This document shows, piece after piece, positions 571 through 46,260 of a stretch of DNA of 64,000 nucleotides. Both the position numbers and the translations under genes were made by a program. Position 1 is the first letter of the stretch. Every line of letters starts with the position of its first letter. Source of the DNA: Syntrophobacterales bacterium (GTDB taxonomy: Bacteria; Desulfobacterota; Syntrophobacteria; BM002); NCBI GenBank assembly GCA_050124835.1, contig JASFEM010000002.1, positions 794 through 64,793 of the forward strand, given 5' to 3'. The notes under the pieces are model-generated. The model saw only the letters and a list, made by a program, of their open reading frames with translations, made no database searches and was not told where the DNA came from.

Positions 571-2643
571 TTATGCCGGGGCAGGAGCTGGAACCTGTGG
601 CCTCCTTGGCCTTTGCAGCAGGTAGATCAAACCATAAAGGGCAAGGCCTATGAGGTACATCCAGTAACGCTTCTCATGGGCAACTCCAAACAAACTGGCA
701 ATCGCATCTGGCCGCATCAAAATGAAGGTGACAGCCAACAGCAAGGGTAATTCGTAGAACCTGTTCTTTGCCACAAACCACCCCTGCGTGGCCGAGGCAA
801 AGGCAAAGTTTCCCAAACACGCCATGGCAAAAATTAACAAACCCGCTGGCCAGCTAGTAATATTGTGCAAAATCAGATCGGCGTTAAAGATGAACATGAA
901 AGGCAAAATGGCCGTGCGGATATCGTACATGAATCCCTGGATGCCCGTAGGGATGGGGTCCGACTTGGCAATGGCCGCGGCAGCGTAAGCAGCCAGACCC
1001 ACAGGCGGTGTGTCATCGGCCAAAATGCCGAAATAGAAGCAAAACAGGTGAGCAGCCATCAACGGAACGATGAAGTCGTACATAGCGCCAATCTCAACAA
1101 TAGCCGGCGCTGTGAGTGAGGCCATAACAATGTAGGTGGCGGTGGTGGGTAGACCCATGCCGATGATCAGGCTGGCAACCGCGGTGATGATCAGTAGCAG
1201 ATAGATGTTGCCACCGGAAAGGGTATCGATGATCTGGGTGATGAGCCCACCGAGGCCCATGGCCACCACTCCGACGATGATGCCGGCGGCGGCTGTAGCC
1301 AGGGCCACAGAAACCATATTCCTGCCACCCGCTGCCAGTGAGGAGAAGATGTCGACGATACTCTGTTTGAAGGCCGCACCGATGGGCTCTTTGTTGCGGA
1401 AAGCCTTCACCGGATTCTGAAATAACATAACCAGAGCCATGACCCAGATGGCATGAAAAGCGGCCAGCTCGGGTGAGTGTCGCACGACGATTAATTCATA
1501 GAGCAGCAGCAAGATTGGGATGAGGTAGTGAGCGCCACCGATCAGCGTTTTAAAAAATGGCGGCAATTCCGCCCGTGGTATACCCCTCAAACCCAGCTTG
1601 GAGGCCTCGATATGGGTGATGTAAAAGAGGGCCGCGTAGGAGGCAAAGGCCGGGACTGCTGCCGCCTTGATCACCGCGATGTAGGGAACGTTGACATACT
1701 CGGCAATAATAAAGGCCGCCGCACCCATGATGGGTGGGGCGAGCTGGCCGTCAGTACTGGCCGCCACCTCCACGGCAGCGGCTTTCTTGGCAGGATAGCC
1801 AACTTTCTTCATCAGAGGGATCGTGAAGGTGCCGGTGGTAACGATATTGGCGATGCTTGACCCGGATACCAGGCCGGTCAGGCCGCTGCCCACAATGGCA
1901 GCCTTGGCCGGTCCCCCTTTGAAGCCGCCCAGAAGACTCAAGGCAAGGTTGATAAAATACCTGCCAGCCCCTGCCTTGTCCAGCATAGCCCCGAAAAGAA
2001 CGAATAGAAAAACAATGGTGGCCGAAACATCCAGGGGGATACCGTAAATGCCTTCGGTGGACATGGTCATCTGGCCGATGAATCGATCCAGAGAAACGCC
2101 CTTGAAAGCGATGAGATCAGGCATATAGGGTCCCAGAAAGGAGTAGGCGATAAAGCCGGTGGCAATGGCGGGGAGGGCTGGACCAATCACGCGGCGCGAG
2201 GCCTCCAGTAACAGGATTGTCAGCGCCAGGCCGAAAACAAGATCACGGGTATTGGGGGCTCCGTAGCGCTCGATGATCCCGCCAAAGTCAACCATAATAT
2301 ATATGGCGGAAACGGCCGCGATAATGGCGATTACATAATCCAGGACAGGAATCTTGTCAGTGGCAGAGAGGAATTTAAGGCCAAAACGTGTCTTCTTGAA
2401 AAAAGGAAAGTTCAAAAAGACAATCAGCAGGGCAAAACCAAGGTGGATGGCCCGAATAAAAACGGTGTCGAGAATGAGCCAACTGGCGATGGACAACTGG
2501 AACAATGACCAGATTATCGCTACGGTGGGAATGACAAATCTGGCACCGCCCTTTGGTAATCGACCGACTCCTTCTTCTTCTTCGGCCAACTTCTTTGCCA
2601 GTTCAAGACCTTCTTCCTTTTCATGCTCTTCCACGTTATTCAT
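571..2643 (-). CDS. TRAP transporter fused permease (DctQ-like + DctM-like, TAXI-associated 4TM/12TM fusion)
   Basis: 690-aa polytopic membrane protein with a charged N-terminus followed by many TM helices. It lies directly downstream of a TAXI solute-binding-protein gene. Confidence 0.85.
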   Translation of the reverse strand: MNNVEEHEKEEGLELAKKLAEEEEGVGRLPKGGARFVIPTVAIIWSLFQLSIASWLILDTVFIRAIHLGFALLIVFLNFPFFKKTRFGLKFLSATDKIPVLDYVIAIIAAVSAIYIMVDFGGIIERYGAPNTRDLVFGLALTILLLEASRRVIGPALPAIATGFIAYSFLGPYMPDLIAFKGVSLDRFIGQMTMSTEGIYGIPLDVSATIVFLFVLFGAMLDKAGAGRYFINLALSLLGGFKGGPAKAAIVGSGLTGLVSGSSIANIVTTGTFTIPLMKKVGYPAKKAAAVEVAASTDGQLAPPIMGAAAFIIAEYVNVPYIAVIKAAAVPAFASYAALFYITHIEASKLGLRGIPRAELPPFFKTLIGGAHYLIPILLLLYELIVVRHSPELAAFHAIWVMALVMLFQNPVKAFRNKEPIGAAFKQSIVDIFSSLAAGGRNMVSVALATAAAGIIVGVVAMGLGGLITQIIDTLSGGNIYLLLIITAVASLIIGMGLPTTATYIVMASLTAPAIVEIGAMYDFIVPLMAAHLFCFYFGILADDTPPVGLAAYAAAAIAKSDPIPTGIQGFMYDIRTAILPFMFIFNADLILHNITSWPAGLLIFAMACLGNFAFASATQGWFVAKNRFYELPLLLAVTFILMRPDAIASLFGVAHEKRYWMYLIGLALYGLIYLLQRPRRPQVPAPAPA

Positions 2644-2891: not shown

Positions 2892-3872
2892 TTACATCAT
2901 GCCAGCCTCTTTATAGTACTTCATCGCACCCGGATGAATGGGTGCCGACATACCTTCAAGCATATTTTCCTTGGTCAGGACCTGGTAGGCCGGATGCAAC
3001 TTCTTGAAGTCCTCGAAGTTGTCGAAAACCTCTTTGGTGATGGCGTAAACCACCCGATCAGGCACCTTGGCTGAGGTGACAAAGGTGGCCTTCACACCAA
3101 AGGTCTGCACATCGCTCTTGTTGGTGGCTCCAGGGTATAGTTTGATTGGAATGAAGGCTTTAGCGTAGTAGGGGTACTTTTGCAGGAGCTTATCCACCCC
3201 GATGATGGGAACAAAGTGGACCTTTCTCCTGCCGGCGGTGGCCTCCTTGATGGCGCCGCTGGGATGACCCACCGTGTAGAAGAAGGCATCAATACGGCCG
3301 TCCTGCAGGAGTCCCGGGGCCTCAGCCGCCTTGACCCCCTCTGCATTCAGGTCTTTTTCATAGTCGATACCTGCATTTTCCAAACCGTCAATGGAATTCT
3401 GCCGCTGGCCGGAGCCCGGGTTTCCAATGTTCACCCGCTTTCCTTTGAGGTCCTGGATCGTTTTGATACCGGCATCATCTGCTGCCACCAGGGTTATGGA
3501 TTCCGGATGGATGGTGAATACGGCCCGAAGATCTTTCTGGGGACCTTTATCCTTCCATTCAGCCAGTCCGTTGATGGCCTGGAACTGGCGGTCGGACTGG
3601 ACCACACCAAATTCCAAGTCCCCGGCCATGACCGCATTGACGTTGAAGACCGAACCACCGGTCGATTCCACCGTGCAGCGGATATTGTAGACCTTTCTTT
3701 TCTTGTTGACGATTCTAGCAATGGCACCGCCAGTTGGATAATACACCCCTGTGATGCCGCCGGTTCCAATGGTAACAAAGGTGGTCTTCGCTACCACAGG
3801 AGCTGGACTAACCACAAGCCCAAGAGCCAAGCAAATGGTTGCGATTAAAGTTATCAATCCGATTCTCTTCAT
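2892..3872 (-). CDS. TAXI-family TRAP transporter solute-binding protein
   Basis: Signal peptide, then TFVTIGTGGITGVYYPTGGAIARIV, characteristic of the TAXI family (TIGR02122-like). Confidence 0.85.
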   Translation of the reverse strand: MKRIGLITLIATICLALGLVVSPAPVVAKTTFVTIGTGGITGVYYPTGGAIARIVNKKRKVYNIRCTVESTGGSVFNVNAVMAGDLEFGVVQSDRQFQAINGLAEWKDKGPQKDLRAVFTIHPESITLVAADDAGIKTIQDLKGKRVNIGNPGSGQRQNSIDGLENAGIDYEKDLNAEGVKAAEAPGLLQDGRIDAFFYTVGHPSGAIKEATAGRRKVHFVPIIGVDKLLQKYPYYAKAFIPIKLYPGATNKSDVQTFGVKATFVTSAKVPDRVVYAITKEVFDNFEDFKKLHPAYQVLTKENMLEGMSAPIHPGAMKYYKEAGMM

Positions 3873-4192
3873 ATGGTTTCTCCTATCTCTTGAGGTTGGA
3901 CGTGTTTAACACGAGGCGGCCATACAAATCGATATCTCACCTCCTTCCATCTGGGCCCTATTCGCTTAGATTTTTGGTTTGAGTTCGGCTTTTTATGATT
4001 GGGAACGCGTAGCGTACCCCAACGAGGAAGTTTATGTGTTATTGCTGCGTACTATCTTACCCGTGTAGATTTTGATGTCAAGTACAAAGGGGGGGATGAA
4101 TCTCTTGTTAGGCCGAGAAAAGTCGTTCTAATTGTTACGCATACTGATTTTATCTTCGTTTGCAGCGGCGATTTGGCAAGTGTCTCTGTCCC

Positions 4193-5050
4193 TTACTTGG
4201 GGGCGGGCACATACACGCCCTTTTCCTCCCACAGGGCCTCGCGTTCCCGTAAAATACGTAAAGTTTTCTTTGGATCCTGTATACTTATGGCAGTGAGAAG
4301 CGCGTTGACCAGGCTTGTGGCGGCAGTAAATGATTCAATAAAGGAGTCCAGCTCACAGTGGGCCGTGAGTACCCAGTGGGCATGGCGGGCCAGGGGAGAG
4401 AGAGGCGAATCGGTGATGGCTCCCACTCGGGCCCCTTGACGACGACCATGTTCTAGGATCTCCACGGTGAAGCGCGTGTAGCGGGGAAAGCTGATGCCGA
4501 TAATCAGATCGCTTTTTGCCAGCCCCTGGAGGATGTCCCACAATTCTCCGTGCCCTGGCACCAAAAGCTGCGTCTCCTTTCCCAGAAAGCGAAGATATGT
4601 GGCCAATGTCAGTGCCGGGGCGTGAGCTCCCCGCAATCCCACTACAAAAATCCGTCTGGCCGTCTGAATCTGCCCAACCGCCTGCTCGAAGAGTTCGACC
4701 GGCAAATCTCTCAAGGTCTGAGAGAGGTTGCGGATGTCCTCCTGGAGAACGTTCATCAGGACATTTCCCTGCTCTCGCACGTGGTCAACGGCATGCTCCA
4801 GTCGCGTCACCGTTGAAAGTCGGTCCCTCAATCCCTCCCTGAACTTTTTCTGCATACCCGGATAGCCATCAAACCCTAAGGCCTGGGCCATTCTCACCAC
4901 GGTGGCCTCGCTCACCTTCACCTTTTGGGCCAGCTGCGAGGCAGTGAGGAAGATTGCCTCCTCATAGTGATCCATGATATAGCGCATTATCCGCTGTTGG
5001 GACGGGGTCAGATGTATTCGCTTGTTGATTAGCAGTTCTTGAAAGGGCAT
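4193..5050 (-). CDS. RpiR/MurR-family transcriptional regulator (HTH_6 + SIS domain)
   Basis: N-terminal HTH followed by a SIS sugar-phosphate-binding domain. Divergent from the GS-like gene. Confidence 0.8.
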   Translation of the reverse strand: MPFQELLINKRIHLTPSQQRIMRYIMDHYEEAIFLTASQLAQKVKVSEATVVRMAQALGFDGYPGMQKKFREGLRDRLSTVTRLEHAVDHVREQGNVLMNVLQEDIRNLSQTLRDLPVELFEQAVGQIQTARRIFVVGLRGAHAPALTLATYLRFLGKETQLLVPGHGELWDILQGLAKSDLIIGISFPRYTRFTVEILEHGRRQGARVGAITDSPLSPLARHAHWVLTAHCELDSFIESFTAATSLVNALLTAISIQDPKKTLRILREREALWEEKGVYVPAPK

Positions 5051-5176
5051 GAAAAAAATCCTTCACAGAAAAAATTTATTGCATTTTTACTTAACAATTT
5101 ACTAGTATTCAAGTCAAACTAAAAATGGTACTGTCCGTGGTCAGTTCCGTTGCGGTGAAAGGAGACTTCAAGCACC

Positions 5177-6487
5177 ATGGTGAGTGTAAAGCAAATCAAA
5201 GAAAAGCTCAAACAGGTAGATTCTACCAAGATATTCTTCACCGATCTCAACGGTAGGAACCGGAGTCTGCCGGTCAACCCTGCAAACATGGATTCTATCA
5301 TCAAGAAAGGGGTCGGTTTCGACGGTAGCTCCATTGCCGGAATCGCCCCGATTGACGACAGTGACCGGCTCCTGTTGCCCATTCAAGACAGCTTCCGGAT
5401 TATAGAATTCAAAGATGAGAAACAGGGCTTTTTTATAGCCAAAATTCAAAATGCACAGGGTGGAAGATCAAAATCTGATTCCAGGGCCGTGCTGGAGCAT
5501 GTGGTTGATCAGGCTGAGTCAGAGTTCGGTTTTAGATTCTTTTTGGGGCCCGAACACGAGTTTTTTTTGCTCACCTGCGACTGTTTCACCGAGAATATCC
5601 ACTCTGACAATGCCGGTTATTTCCATTGCGATCCCCATGACAAAGGTGAGGTGGTCAGGAATAACATCATCAAGGTACTGGATAAGTGTGGCATAAAGTA
5701 TGAAAAAGCGCATCATGAGGTTACGGCGTCGCAGCACGAAATAAACCTGGAGTGTCTGGATCCCTTGGGGGCTGCCGACCGTACCGTGCTATTCAACTAT
5801 GTGACCCAGAAAGTAGCAGCGGAAAATGGCCTACACGCCACTTTCATGCCCAAGCCCTTTGATGGACAAAACAGAAATGCCTTCCATATTCACCTCTCCA
5901 TGCTGGACAAGAAGGGGAAGAATCTGTTCTTTCAGGCAAAGGCAGAATATAATCTGAGTAAGACCGCCAGGCAATTCATGGGAGGCATCATAAAATATGC
6001 CCGAGAGACCTCCATTGTGATGGCATCAACTTTCAATTCATATAAGGCCTACGTGGTCGAGAGGGAGGCTCCGGTGGTAAGGGGATGGGGGCTGAAAAAC
6101 AGAAGCTCCATGGTGAGGGTACCCTATGCGAGTAGCCCGGATAGTACGAGGATAGAGCTCAGAAACCCTGATCCCACCGGTAATCCTTACTTGCAGATGG
6201 CAACCCTCATCGGTATGGGTCTTCAAGGCATAAGAGAGGATCTTGATTGTGGCGAGCCAGACATGGGCAGCACTTACAAGGTCAGAAGGAAATATCGCGT
6301 CTGGGACAAAAGGTATCTTCCCAAGTCCATGTTCGAGGCCCTGGTGGAGGCCGAAAAGAGTAAATTTCTTAAAGGCTTATTGGGAGAGCGAATATACAAC
6401 AATTACATGGCCCTCAAGATTGCAGACTGGGAAGAGCACAGAACCCATGTTACGCCCAGAGAGCATGAGAAGTATTTGAGCATATAA
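5177..6487 (+). CDS. Glutamine synthetase-family enzyme (short GSI-alpha-like, 436 aa)
   Basis: GS motifs NGLHATFMPKPFDG, HHEVTASQHEINLE, ELRNPDPTGNPYL and an N-terminal beta-grasp domain. Confidence 0.85.
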   Translation: MVSVKQIKEKLKQVDSTKIFFTDLNGRNRSLPVNPANMDSIIKKGVGFDGSSIAGIAPIDDSDRLLLPIQDSFRIIEFKDEKQGFFIAKIQNAQGGRSKSDSRAVLEHVVDQAESEFGFRFFLGPEHEFFLLTCDCFTENIHSDNAGYFHCDPHDKGEVVRNNIIKVLDKCGIKYEKAHHEVTASQHEINLECLDPLGAADRTVLFNYVTQKVAAENGLHATFMPKPFDGQNRNAFHIHLSMLDKKGKNLFFQAKAEYNLSKTARQFMGGIIKYARETSIVMASTFNSYKAYVVEREAPVVRGWGLKNRSSMVRVPYASSPDSTRIELRNPDPTGNPYLQMATLIGMGLQGIREDLDCGEPDMGSTYKVRRKYRVWDKRYLPKSMFEALVEAEKSKFLKGLLGERIYNNYMALKIADWEEHRTHVTPREHEKYLSI

Positions 6488-6571
6488 AGCAGCTGGCAGC
6501 AGAAAGATTCTGATAGATGACCAATAACGCTATGCGCTTGGCGCTACGCGAGAATTAAGGAGAGAGATTTA

Positions 6572-7645
6572 ATGGAAAAATGGATCGAGCAACTACAACA
6601 TAGTGTAAATACCCTCGAAAAGCTCAGGGAGTACGTGGATGTCACTCCTGAGGAGGAGAAGGGTATCACCACACTCAACACCAAATGGGGCACGACACCC
6701 TACTTTGCTGCTCTGATGGATCGGAATGATCCCAACTGCCCAATCAGAAAGCAAGTCGTACCTTCTCTCAGGGAAAAAGAAAACCGTTACGGAATTCCAA
6801 ATTACCTGATCTGGAAAGAAAATCGCGACACCGACGAGGTCAGACCCGACAGCATTGCCAGGCAGTACCATGACCGCATTGCCTTTACCGTCACCGACAT
6901 GTGTGCCAACTATTGCCGGCACTGTTTCCGCAAAGAACTGGTTGTAGACCGTGACCTCAAACTTCGTATGGATGTGGAGGAGGGGTTGGCGTGGATTCAA
7001 GAACATAAAGAGATTCGCGATGTCCTCATCACCGGGGGTGACCCTTTTATCCTTTCAGACGAAAAAGTCGAATACCTTATACGAAAGCTGCGTGAAATCC
7101 AACATATCGAGATGATTCGCTTCGGTACCCGCACACCCATTGTGCTCCCGCATCGAATTACCGAAGGTCTTAAGAAGGTGCTGAGCGGTAATCACAAAGT
7201 ACCAATTTGGGTAAACACCCAGTGTAATCATCCCAATGAAATCACCGAAAAGACTGCCGAGGCAGTTTACGATCTGCTCTCTTGCGGTGTCAATGTGGGC
7301 AATCAGGCTGTTCTCCTAAAGGGTATTAACGACGATGTGGAAACCTTCAGAAAGTTGCACCAAAAACTTCTGGCGGTCAGGATTCGCCCCTATTACGTCT
7401 TTTACTGTGAACCGGCACCAGGAATAGATCATTTCCGCACCCCGGTTGAAAAGGGAGCTGAACTCATTCGAGATGCGCTTCGCGGTCACACGTCCGGTTT
7501 GGCCCAGCCCATGTATGTCATTGCCACCAATATTGGCAAGATTCCTCTTATGCCCGACTATTACATTGTTGACAAAAATGAGAAAGAATACACCCTGCGA
7601 AATTATAAAGGCGAAATAACCACACTGCCGAATATTCCCGAGTAA
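6572..7645 (+). CDS. KamA-family radical SAM 2,3-aminomutase-like protein
   Basis: CANYCRHC radical-SAM cluster motif. C-terminal region resembles lysine 2,3-aminomutase (HFRTP, LRGHTSG, LRNYKGEITT). 357 aa, shorter than canonical LAM. Confidence 0.85.
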   Translation: MEKWIEQLQHSVNTLEKLREYVDVTPEEEKGITTLNTKWGTTPYFAALMDRNDPNCPIRKQVVPSLREKENRYGIPNYLIWKENRDTDEVRPDSIARQYHDRIAFTVTDMCANYCRHCFRKELVVDRDLKLRMDVEEGLAWIQEHKEIRDVLITGGDPFILSDEKVEYLIRKLREIQHIEMIRFGTRTPIVLPHRITEGLKKVLSGNHKVPIWVNTQCNHPNEITEKTAEAVYDLLSCGVNVGNQAVLLKGINDDVETFRKLHQKLLAVRIRPYYVFYCEPAPGIDHFRTPVEKGAELIRDALRGHTSGLAQPMYVIATNIGKIPLMPDYYIVDKNEKEYTLRNYKGEITTLPNIPE

Positions 7646-7758
7646 CTTTTCAACTGGTTTGGCCGGCGGCGATGCATCCCGCCCCACAATTTTACTTGGT
7701 GTTCCAAACGACTGAAGGGGTGGAGTTAATAGCCGCCCGCCAAAATGGTGGTTCTTCA

Positions 7759-44889: not shown

Positions 44890-46260
44890 CTATAGTTTGT
44901 GAGGATCGAGAACGGAAGTGATGGATGAGGGATTCTCCATTTGGTGACCCAGAAACTCCACCTGATTTCGGACACCACTCTTTTCTTGAATTTGTCGGGT
45001 GATGTTATCTACAGCGTGAATTACGGTAGCGTGGGAGCGATTGAACGCTTGACCGATTGACTCTAGAGTCTCATCGGTATATTTACGGCAGAAATACATG
45101 CCGAGATTACGCGGGTAGACCACCCCTTTCTTGCGCGAATTAGACTTTAGGGCTTCAACAGACACTTTGAAATACTGGCAGATAATCTGTTGAACCCGTT
45201 CTATACTGATAGCCTCGCGGCTGTCACAGACCGACTCCAGAACCTCGTGCGCCAATCTGAGATCTATGGGTTTGTCGAGGAGCGACGACTTGGCGACGAT
45301 ACCTATTATGGAGCTTTCCAACTGCCGTACATCCCTGGTTATGTGAGTAGCCAAAAGTTCTGCCACCTCCGCCGGCAGTTGGACTCCCTCGTTGGCCGCT
45401 TTTTTCTCCAGAATTTTGAGCCTGGTCTGGAAATCGGGCGGTTCAATGTGGGTAACCATCCCAGCGGTTAACCGTGATTGCAATTTGCTTTCTAGCTTGG
45501 GAATGTCTCTAGGAAAGTGGGTTCCGGTAAATATGACTCGCTTACCGTACCGACCTAAGGCGTCAAGGGTGTAGGACAACTCCGACTGTGTCTTCTCCTT
45601 GCCGCTGAGAAATTGTACCTCCTCCAAAAGAAGTACATCGCACTTGCTGCGGTACTTATCTTTGAATCCATCCATGCGCCGCTGTTTGATGGCAACAACC
45701 ATCTCGTTGGTAAACTCCTCAGCTGTCAGGTAGTGAACCCGGGTGCTGTGATTCAGGTTGAGGATGTGATTACCGATGGCATGAGAAAGGTGACTTTTCC
45801 CGAGACCAGTATCAGCCAACAAATATAGGGAGCTGCACGGGCTGTGGTCACCGTTGGCAATGGCAAAGGCTGCAGAGAAAGCAAAACTATTGCCCGTGCC
45901 GACAACGAATTGGTCGAAGGTGAACCGCCGATTGAGACGGTACAGATGTCCATTGTCATCCACAGGCAAAGGAAGCTCTAATTGGCTGGAATTTTTCGGC
46001 TCTTTTTTAGACCTTCGAGGCGGGGTCGCCAAACGGAGCTGGAGGTCCCGAGGGGTACCACCATGCCGTTCCCAACTTTTCCTTATATCAGCTAGATAGT
46101 TCTCCCGAACCCAGTTGAGAAAGAATCGGTTCGGGCATGCCAGGGAAATCTCACCCTCCTTCGAGGTTACCAGCTCCAGAGGTTCGATCCACATCTTAAA
46201 ACAATTGTTGGAGACCTTACTTTGCAGATCTTCCTTAGTATGTTTCCAGATTTCCTCCAT
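44890..46260 (-). CDS. dnaA: Chromosomal replication initiator protein DnaA
   Basis: AAA+ Walker A GLGKSHL, sensor motifs, and C-terminal DNA-binding domain VYPRNLGMYFCRKYTDETLESIGQAFNRSHATVIHA. Confidence 0.95.
   Translation of the reverse strand: MEEIWKHTKEDLQSKVSNNCFKMWIEPLELVTSKEGEISLACPNRFFLNWVRENYLADIRKSWERHGGTPRDLQLRLATPPRRSKKEPKNSSQLELPLPVDDNGHLYRLNRRFTFDQFVVGTGNSFAFSAAFAIANGDHSPCSSLYLLADTGLGKSHLSHAIGNHILNLNHSTRVHYLTAEEFTNEMVVAIKQRRMDGFKDKYRSKCDVLLLEEVQFLSGKEKTQSELSYTLDALGRYGKRVIFTGTHFPRDIPKLESKLQSRLTAGMVTHIEPPDFQTRLKILEKKAANEGVQLPAEVAELLATHITRDVRQLESSIIGIVAKSSLLDKPIDLRLAHEVLESVCDSREAISIERVQQIICQYFKVSVEALKSNSRKKGVVYPRNLGMYFCRKYTDETLESIGQAFNRSHATVIHAVDNITRQIQEKSGVRNQVEFLGHQMENPSSITSVLDPHKL

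Follow-up and report, generated by a model that had tools for sequence, protein, structure and literature searches.

A conserved pairing of a glutamine synthetase-like gene with a KamA-family aminomutase gene in Desulfobacterota and its possible place in beta-glutamine metabolism

What do two adjacent genes do when one encodes a protein of the glutamine synthetase (GS) family and the other a radical S-adenosylmethionine (SAM) aminomutase of the KamA family? The question is raised by a locus in a 64-kb stretch of DNA (the window, hereafter, meaning the whole stretch that was studied) from a Desulfobacterota (Syntrophobacterales-like) metagenome-assembled genome, which among complete genomes has its nearest relative in CP070735.1 (97% identity). 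Databases give the two products no names beyond 'glutamine synthetase family protein' and 'KamA family radical SAM protein', and no description of this module was found in the literature searched on the gene pair, on beta-glutamine genes and on glutamate aminomutase. A sequence-only reading of the window had proposed a beta-amino-acid module in which the pair was joined by a divergent RpiR regulator and a TAXI-type TRAP transporter, and the open reading frames (ORFs), the motifs, the divergent regulator and the complete transporter are as that reading described them, according to the ORF list, Pfam and NCBIfam. We find that the pair is a two-gene operon core in the Desulfobacterota, that neither protein, as judged from sequence, is a fit to a characterised family, and that the pair probably links the glutamate/glutamine pool to beta-glutamate and beta-glutamine. 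The two genes are the following:

5177-6487, plus strand: GS-like gene, 436 aa, with the Pfam domains Gln-synt_N and Gln-synt_C
6572-7645, plus strand: KamA-like gene, 357 aa, a radical-SAM and pyridoxal phosphate (PLP) protein of the KamA family (Pfam, NCBIfam)

Conservation of the gene pair

The GS-like gene comes first on the shared strand and is separated from the KamA gene by 84 bp, so that the close spacing claimed by the sequence-only reading stands and only its figure of 85 bp needs correction. Inspection of the sequence shows an AGGAG ribosome-binding site ahead of the GS-like start codon. One genome per species was scanned with the KamA gene, yielding 334 confirmed matches that belong to Desulfobacterota in almost all cases; the best 80 of these were analysed, and 71 of the 80 loci, those with sufficient upstream sequence, are evaluable. 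(The labels L001-L098 used below denote neighbourhoods of relatives.) In 56 of the 71 evaluable loci (79%), all from different species, the GS-like gene lies directly 5' of KamA on the same strand, the median gap across loci being about 58 bp, and when the search was turned round, starting from three GS-like proteins encoded on long contigs, KamA was found immediately 3' in 3/3. Clustering of all neighbouring ORFs gave no other neighbour gene of comparable conservation, and the flanking genes vary from locus to locus. Identity among orthologues ranges from 80 to 97% for KamA and from 59 to 96% for the GS-like protein. The pairing is far beyond chance, and the conservation of the two genes as neighbours, checked here across the Desulfobacterota, bears out what the sequence-only reading had anticipated.

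Carriers of the pair are common among marine-sediment sulfate reducers and gutless-worm symbionts, and they include one cultured and fully sequenced organism, Desulfofustis limnaeus (AP025516.1). One locus (L056, JAIWHJ010000121.1) has the pair in a bin labelled 'Promethearchaeota archaeon'; its KamA is 83% identical to the Desulfobacterota gene, and the archaeal label is most likely a binning error. The labels of bins assigned to Nitrospinaceae (L015) and Myxococcota (L059) are similarly doubtful.

Substrate pockets of the two enzymes

The GS-like protein bears the family motifs NGLHATFMPKP, HHEV..QHEIN and RNPDPTGNPYL, its nearest solved structures are the GSI-alpha enzymes of Methanosarcina and Bacillus (442-449 aa, E ~1e-81), and by this comparison it is a GSI-alpha derivative. 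The sequence-only reading had called it short and had used this to argue that the gene is not a housekeeping glnA, an argument that is invalid because 436 aa is a normal GSI-alpha length. The conclusion itself holds on other grounds: the gene is not a canonical glnA because its product scores 353.2 bits against the GlnA model TIGR00653, under the cut-off of 429.15, and because two conserved glutamate-binding residues are replaced. Similarity to the gamma-glutamyl-amine branch is lower, at 217 bits against a cut-off of 650 for the PuuA model and E 8e-42 for the GmaS structure. There is no second GS within the 64-kb window.

Alignment of the protein and 44 orthologues to Escherichia coli GlnA (residue numbering is that of E. 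coli unless stated) shows that the catalytic machinery is intact, with the metal ligands E129, E131, E212, E220, H269 and E357, the ATP and phosphate residues R339, R344, R355, R359 and H271, and the ammonium site D50, S53 and Y179 together with the flap residue E327 all invariant in the 44 orthologues. Just as invariant among them are the changes G265R, S266N, G267A, R321A, L322Y, R224E and G325E/D, and M268F and Y326R/K are found in nearly all (in the protein's own numbering, R233 corresponds to G265, A291 to R321, E192 to R224, and E295/R296 to G325/Y326). The altered positions lie in the pocket for the alpha-amino-acid end of glutamate. Two of them, G265 and R321, are equivalent to Gly246 and Arg303 in the enzyme of M. 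thermolithotrophicus, both of which are listed as residues that bind glutamate and show perfect conservation across bacterial and archaeal GS (PMC10799026). We infer that the GS-like protein is active as an amide synthetase that uses ammonium, and that its acid substrate would not be canonically bound L-glutamate.

Such a remodelling would run opposite to that of other GS paralogues. The gamma-glutamyl-amine synthetases of the PuuA/GmaS/GlnA3 type retain the glutamate site and have a changed amine site. Like the protein described here they serve in side pathways and are annotated only as 'glutamine synthetase family protein', whereas here the pattern is reversed, with the ammonium site kept and the acid site changed. 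For a GS paralogue to keep its ammonium chemistry and have its acid pocket rebuilt would be a type of divergence new to the GS family.

The KamA-like protein shows the motifs CANYCRHC, HFRTP and LRGHTSG and passes the generic KamA model TIGR00238 (284.3 bits, cut-off 199.2), the sole KamA-type model that it passes. All function-specific models fail: the arginine model TIGR04468 gives the marginally highest score of these (359.8 bits against 600), followed by the glutamate model TIGR04368 (Eam; 344.6 bits, cut-off 650) and the lysine model TIGR03820 (lysine 2,3-aminomutase, LAM, or AblA; 343.9 bits, cut-off 525.4), and the EpmB model TIGR03821 gives the worst aminomutase score (194.7 bits, cut-off 369.3), so that the sequence-only reading, which would require that the protein is not an EpmB, is upheld on this point. 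In an alignment with 2A5H, the solved structure of the lysine enzyme (E 1e-93), the protein has the cluster cysteines C111, C115 and C118 at LAM C125, C129 and C132, R120 at the carboxylate-binding R134 and K323 at the PLP lysine K337; it is without the zinc site and without the C-terminal domain.

The residues that set substrate selectivity are different. In LAM, Asp293 and Asp330 hold the side-chain (epsilon) amine of lysine, and the Clostridioides difficile glutamate enzyme is reported by Ruzicka and Frey (2007) to have Lys and Asn at the same two positions. Here E280 stands at LAM D293 and A318 at LAM D330, with R97 at LAM H111, and the Glu/Ala signature is essentially invariant in 74 KamA orthologues. 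Reading this selectivity code (LAM 293/330) in 137 diverse representatives of the KamA family, we find the lysine-type Asp/Asp code in 98, the glutamate (Eam) type Lys/Asn in seven, Gln/Asp in three, and Asp/Thr in a single representative (P0249), which passes the arginine model at 630 bits and sits in a blasticidin-like cluster. Among the 137, Glu/Ala occurs in the query clade only; a sister representative, on a 1.4-kb contig along which no GS partner is seen, bears a D/A code. Arginine at LAM 111 is found in 7/7 Eam-type representatives and 7/128 others as well as in the query clade (R97), an association found empirically here rather than a recognised defining residue. When 1.84 billion cluster representatives were searched, the clade had one full-length 50%-identity representative (79% identity), the next relatives lying at 46% or less, and in a neighbour-joining tree that carries no support values the clade falls with the non-lysine aminomutases. 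By these comparisons the KamA protein is an isolated clade and, as predicted from them, a new subfamily. Its pocket would suit a five-carbon, oxygen-bearing side chain such as glutamate has, the cationic partner having been swapped for a hydrogen-bond acceptor, as would be expected for glutamine.

Candidate reactions and their alternatives

The best explanation that we can offer, to which we give a probability of roughly 0.4, is a joint assignment in which glutamine/beta-glutamine aminomutase activity falls to the KamA protein and the amidation of beta-glutamate to the GS-like enzyme. The former protein would act as a glutamine 2,3-aminomutase that interconverts L-glutamine and beta-glutamine, in a pocket that retains the Arg111 typical of glutamate aminomutases and in which a Glu in place of the carboxylate-pairing Lys could accept hydrogen bonds from the carboxamide NH2. 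The latter would be an ATP- and ammonium-dependent amide synthetase converting beta-glutamate to beta-glutamine, its canonical binding of L-glutamate having been lost. Predicted from sequence in this way, the substrates, products and physiological direction admit two options. The pair may build beta-glutamine as a non-metabolised compatible solute, or it may serve in salvage, in which beta-glutamate, ammonium and ATP would give beta-glutamine and then L-glutamine; salvage would account both for the close association with importers and for the order of the genes, and it would cost no extra ATP compared with normal ammonium assimilation. In either case importers of the glutamate or glutamine type, TAXI-TRAP or GlnHPQ, would feed the module.

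Several points weigh against this assignment. The specificities are assigned from two to four aligned positions, and Glu280 might just as well face the cationic side chain of ornithine or lysine, or simply be bridged to Arg97 as a salt pair. Nor does beta-glutamate specifically predict that R321 is lost, as its distal carboxylate could still reach that position. If both enzymes yield beta-glutamine, they are apparently redundant and a separate source of beta-glutamate is needed. In addition, about 20% of the loci are without an adjacent GS-like gene, and the TAXI system and the GlnH-type transporters are each confined to a minority of loci.

Both beta-glutamine and beta-glutamate are well-known compatible solutes. 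To our knowledge the formation of beta-glutamine has never been assigned to dedicated genes, and the bacterial role of the glutamate-type aminomutases is still unclear. The ordinary GS of Methanohalophilus portucalensis makes beta-glutamine, an osmolyte in that organism, from beta-glutamate, and this GSI-alpha-type amidation is the only known route to beta-glutamine, for which no dedicated genes are known (PMC1224877). The GS-like protein resembles that enzyme as a GSI-alpha derivative with an intact ammonium site, and differs from it as a member of a separate paralogue family that no longer has Gly265 or Arg321 and has an aminomutase as its genetic partner. A second precedent is the methanogen operon that makes the osmolyte N-epsilon-acetyl-beta-lysine (AblA-AblB), likewise two genes that combine an aminomutase with an enzyme neutralising the charge of the beta-amino acid; LAM/AblA sequences are also the most similar overall to KamA (46% identity; 2A5H, E 1e-93). 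Unlike AblA, the protein studied here has neither Asp293/Asp330 nor the zinc site nor the C-terminal domain, and its partner is a GS-family amide synthetase instead of an acetyltransferase.

That the two proteins are the first glutamine 2,3-aminomutase and the first dedicated beta-glutamate:ammonia ligase, and jointly a previously unknown bacterial pathway, is a stronger claim and one that we regard as doubtful at present. If true, the pathway would either make the solute beta-glutamine or turn environmental beta-glutamate into L-glutamine, and the new specificity code would extend the known substrates of 2,3-aminomutases, which are lysine, glutamate and arginine. Since the pair is often found in sulfate reducers of marine sediments and in symbionts of gutless worms, it could be of importance for osmoadaptation or for nitrogen scavenging in those ecosystems, and in D. 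limnaeus, as a cultured carrier, the hypothesis is directly testable.

A linear osmolyte route, in which KamA would convert glutamate to beta-glutamate and the GS-like enzyme would then form beta-glutamine, is unlikely. The remodelled GS-like pocket could suit beta-glutamate, a glutamate-type TAXI importer is close by, one locus (L053) has a long KamA-like paralogue with Eam-like residues just 5' of the GS-like gene, and KamA shares Arg111 and Phe290 with Eam-type enzymes. Further features in common with Eam (the C. difficile type of TIGR04368) are the KamA fold, the CxxxCxxC motif, the PLP lysine and Arg134. The route conflicts with the selectivity positions, where KamA has an invariant Glu in place of the carboxylate-pairing Lys carried by all Eam-type sequences, and Ala in place of Asn. 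KamA also lacks the N-terminal extension of Eam, is about 42% or less identical to it and falls well below the Eam cut-off (345 bits against 650), and, in a look for GS partners of other aminomutase types, the single bona fide Eam-type gene inspected had no GS beside it. This charge reversal, Lys/Asn to Glu/Ala, speaks against the glutamate 2,3-aminomutase of the sequence-only reading, the beta-amino-acid module of which survives in outline, in its tie to glutamate and glutamine, and not in its step from glutamate to beta-glutamate.

Equally improbable is a cationic substrate for KamA (ornithine, lysine or arginine), with the GS-like enzyme amidating or ligating the beta-amino acid so formed, or some acid unrelated to it, to give a further metabolite. 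At position 293 an acidic residue is also used by the lysine and arginine enzymes, the GS-like pocket gains the acidic residues E192 and E295, and some loci are extended by an ATP-grasp ligase, an additional aminomutase and an M20 hydrolase. The arginine aminomutases of the BlsG type (TIGR04468) come closest, with a length of about 350-380 aa, a loop before the PLP lysine that is similarly short by two residues (TTR--IGK vs ATN--IGK), a neighbouring position in the neighbour-joining tree and the marginally best NCBIfam match. That match is nevertheless at 360 bits against a cut-off of 600, the code is Glu/Ala rather than Asp/Thr, and true arginine enzymes sit in nucleoside-antibiotic clusters, whereas no antibiotic-type cluster surrounds the pair. 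Against lysine in particular, there is no ablB-type acetyltransferase among the families most often matched by 126 neighbour proteins, until then unannotated, that are encoded at most two genes away from the pair. Nor do the recurring transporters, which are of the glutamate/glutamine and not the cationic amino-acid type, or the Arg111 that KamA has in common with the glutamate enzymes, favour a cationic substrate.

A third possibility keeps the glutamine 2,3-aminomutase and makes the GS-like protein a dedicated, regulation-insensitive L-glutamine synthetase that feeds it (glutamate to glutamine to beta-glutamine). This would give a simple linear path matching the gene order, GS then KamA, with the ammonium and ATP sites intact and with glutamate and glutamine importers both supplying one line, and Halobacillus is reported to employ a second GS for osmolyte glutamine (PMC2412884). 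We consider it quite unlikely, given the invariant replacement of Arg321 and Gly265, which are perfectly conserved in genuine GS (PMC10799026) and the loss of which argues against normal binding of L-glutamate. That the pair is merely a housekeeping glnA and an EpmB-type lysine aminomutase modifying elongation factor P, brought together by chance, would suit the surrounding housekeeping genes (kdsB, carAB, purF, kdsD, purB) and is very improbable, the GlnA cut-off being missed and the glutamate-binding residues replaced, EpmB giving the lowest aminomutase score (195 bits against 369), no efp or epmA being found among the window ORFs flanking the pair (RpiR, TAXI-TRAP, kdsB, carAB), unlike the compared neighbourhood of E. 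coli where epmB adjoins efp, and the pairing being kept in 79% of loci although the flanking genes change.

Transporters, regulator and other neighbours

The features upstream of the pair in the window are the following:

571-2643, minus strand: fused TRAP permease, DctM and DUF3394 (TIGR02123, 634 bits, cut-off 321), membrane component that goes with the TAXI protein
2892-3872, minus strand: TAXI-family TRAP solute-binding protein (TIGR02122, 344 bits, cut-off 84)
4193-5050, minus strand: RpiR/MurR regulator, HTH_6 and SIS domains (Pfam, NCBIfam), divergent from the pair
5051-5176, no strand: AT-rich divergent intergenic region between the RpiR and GS-like genes, presumed promoter/operator region

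The TAXI binding protein of the window is about 58% identical to VcGluP of Vibrio cholerae (8S4J, E 9e-95), and 10 of the 13 ligand contacts of VcGluP are identical, including the critical Tyr45 and Gln93, the differences being S40G, D157Q and M201T. The affinity of VcGluP is 65 nM for L-glutamate and 11 uM for L-glutamine (PMC11574862). The ligand of the window protein is thus, by this likeness to a glutamate-specific protein, a probable glutamate or close analogue, in keeping with the glutamate link proposed by the sequence-only reading. A binding protein of this TAXI type recurs beside the pair in L001, L009, L049 and L092, where the genes are arranged in three different ways; the TAXI system is not core to the module, because it is found in only a minority of loci.

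In at least eight loci a binding protein at the level of GlnH (E 1e-79 to E. coli GlnBP) lies beside the pair together with a permease and an ATPase, and in D. limnaeus (L089 6230-11308) a GlnH-like ATP-binding cassette transporter stands between the KamA and GS-like genes, all on one strand. Recurrent neighbours also include a type I asparaginase-like amidohydrolase, stand-alone or multi-subunit glutamate-synthase (GOGAT)-like genes and, in 13 loci directly 3' of KamA, a CPG2-like M20 hydrolase/peptidase; with GlnHPQ these make up a glutamate/glutamine context of the kind that the sequence-only reading had suspected. The GlnH-like protein of D. limnaeus has Phe in place of GlnBP His156, an 'FD' variant seen also in L042 and L066, and the GlnH-like proteins beside asparaginase genes retain His-Asp.

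The RpiR gene adjoins the pair solely in the closest relatives (L001, L003, L004, L006, L007, L083 and L093), which does not support its inclusion in the module, and its product passes no NCBIfam equivalog model. In and near the locus no Rfam element or riboswitch scores above noise, the counts of sigma-70 promoters and terminators in a scan do not exceed the shuffled expectation, and an alignment of the region 5' of the GS-like gene with six relatives shows no conserved operator, only the ribosome-binding site being kept. A sigma-54-like match in the intergenic region 5051-5176 was rejected, its spacing being wrong by one base.

Downstream of the pair come kdsB, carA, carB, purF, kdsD, ppsA and purB, by which the pair is placed in the core chromosome. 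The kdsB frame has alternative starts at 7672 (26 bp past the KamA stop) and 7756, and identical contigs are annotated at 7672; with this start, at such a short distance, kdsB may be co-transcribed with the pair in this lineage. A full-length dnaA lies at 44890-46260 on the minus strand, about 37 kb from the pair, and the window is therefore probably near the chromosomal replication origin.

Some relatives carry further aminomutase-like genes. A five-gene cluster that includes the pair (L019 2560-9261, and likewise L022, L011, L044, L052 and L067) adds an ATP-grasp ligase-like protein (~467 aa), a long KamA paralogue and a terminal CPG2-like M20 hydrolase. The long paralogue (KamA2) has ~530-540 aa with a ~190-aa N-terminal extension and 'CSYRNPQF' at the specificity position, its best match is the glutamate aminomutase model, below threshold, and it represents an uncharacterised family widespread in Desulfobacterota and Deferribacter; a link to the methanogen glutamate aminomutase was not found among its best 120 relatives, all of which are bacterial. 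In L053 alone, a 607-aa KamA-like protein (3506-5329) directly 5' of the pair has a long N-terminal extension and the Eam-like residues Arg111, Gln133 and Lys at position 293. Another pairing of an aminomutase with an amidase is seen in L097 (5552-7797) and L098, where an aminomutase of another, uncharacterised type, with the Gln/Asp code (representative P0248), is followed by an Asparaginase_2 (Ntn-type) amidohydrolase.

In several of the closest relatives (L002-L005) KamA faces a stand-alone Glu_synthase-domain gene in convergent orientation. In L093 (1-3755 and 9116-11675), from a close relative, genes for a multi-subunit glutamate-synthase-like enzyme flank the pair together with those for a stand-alone Glu_synthase-domain protein of 529 aa and for a GAF-ANTAR regulator, a setting that suggests nitrogen-regulated expression.

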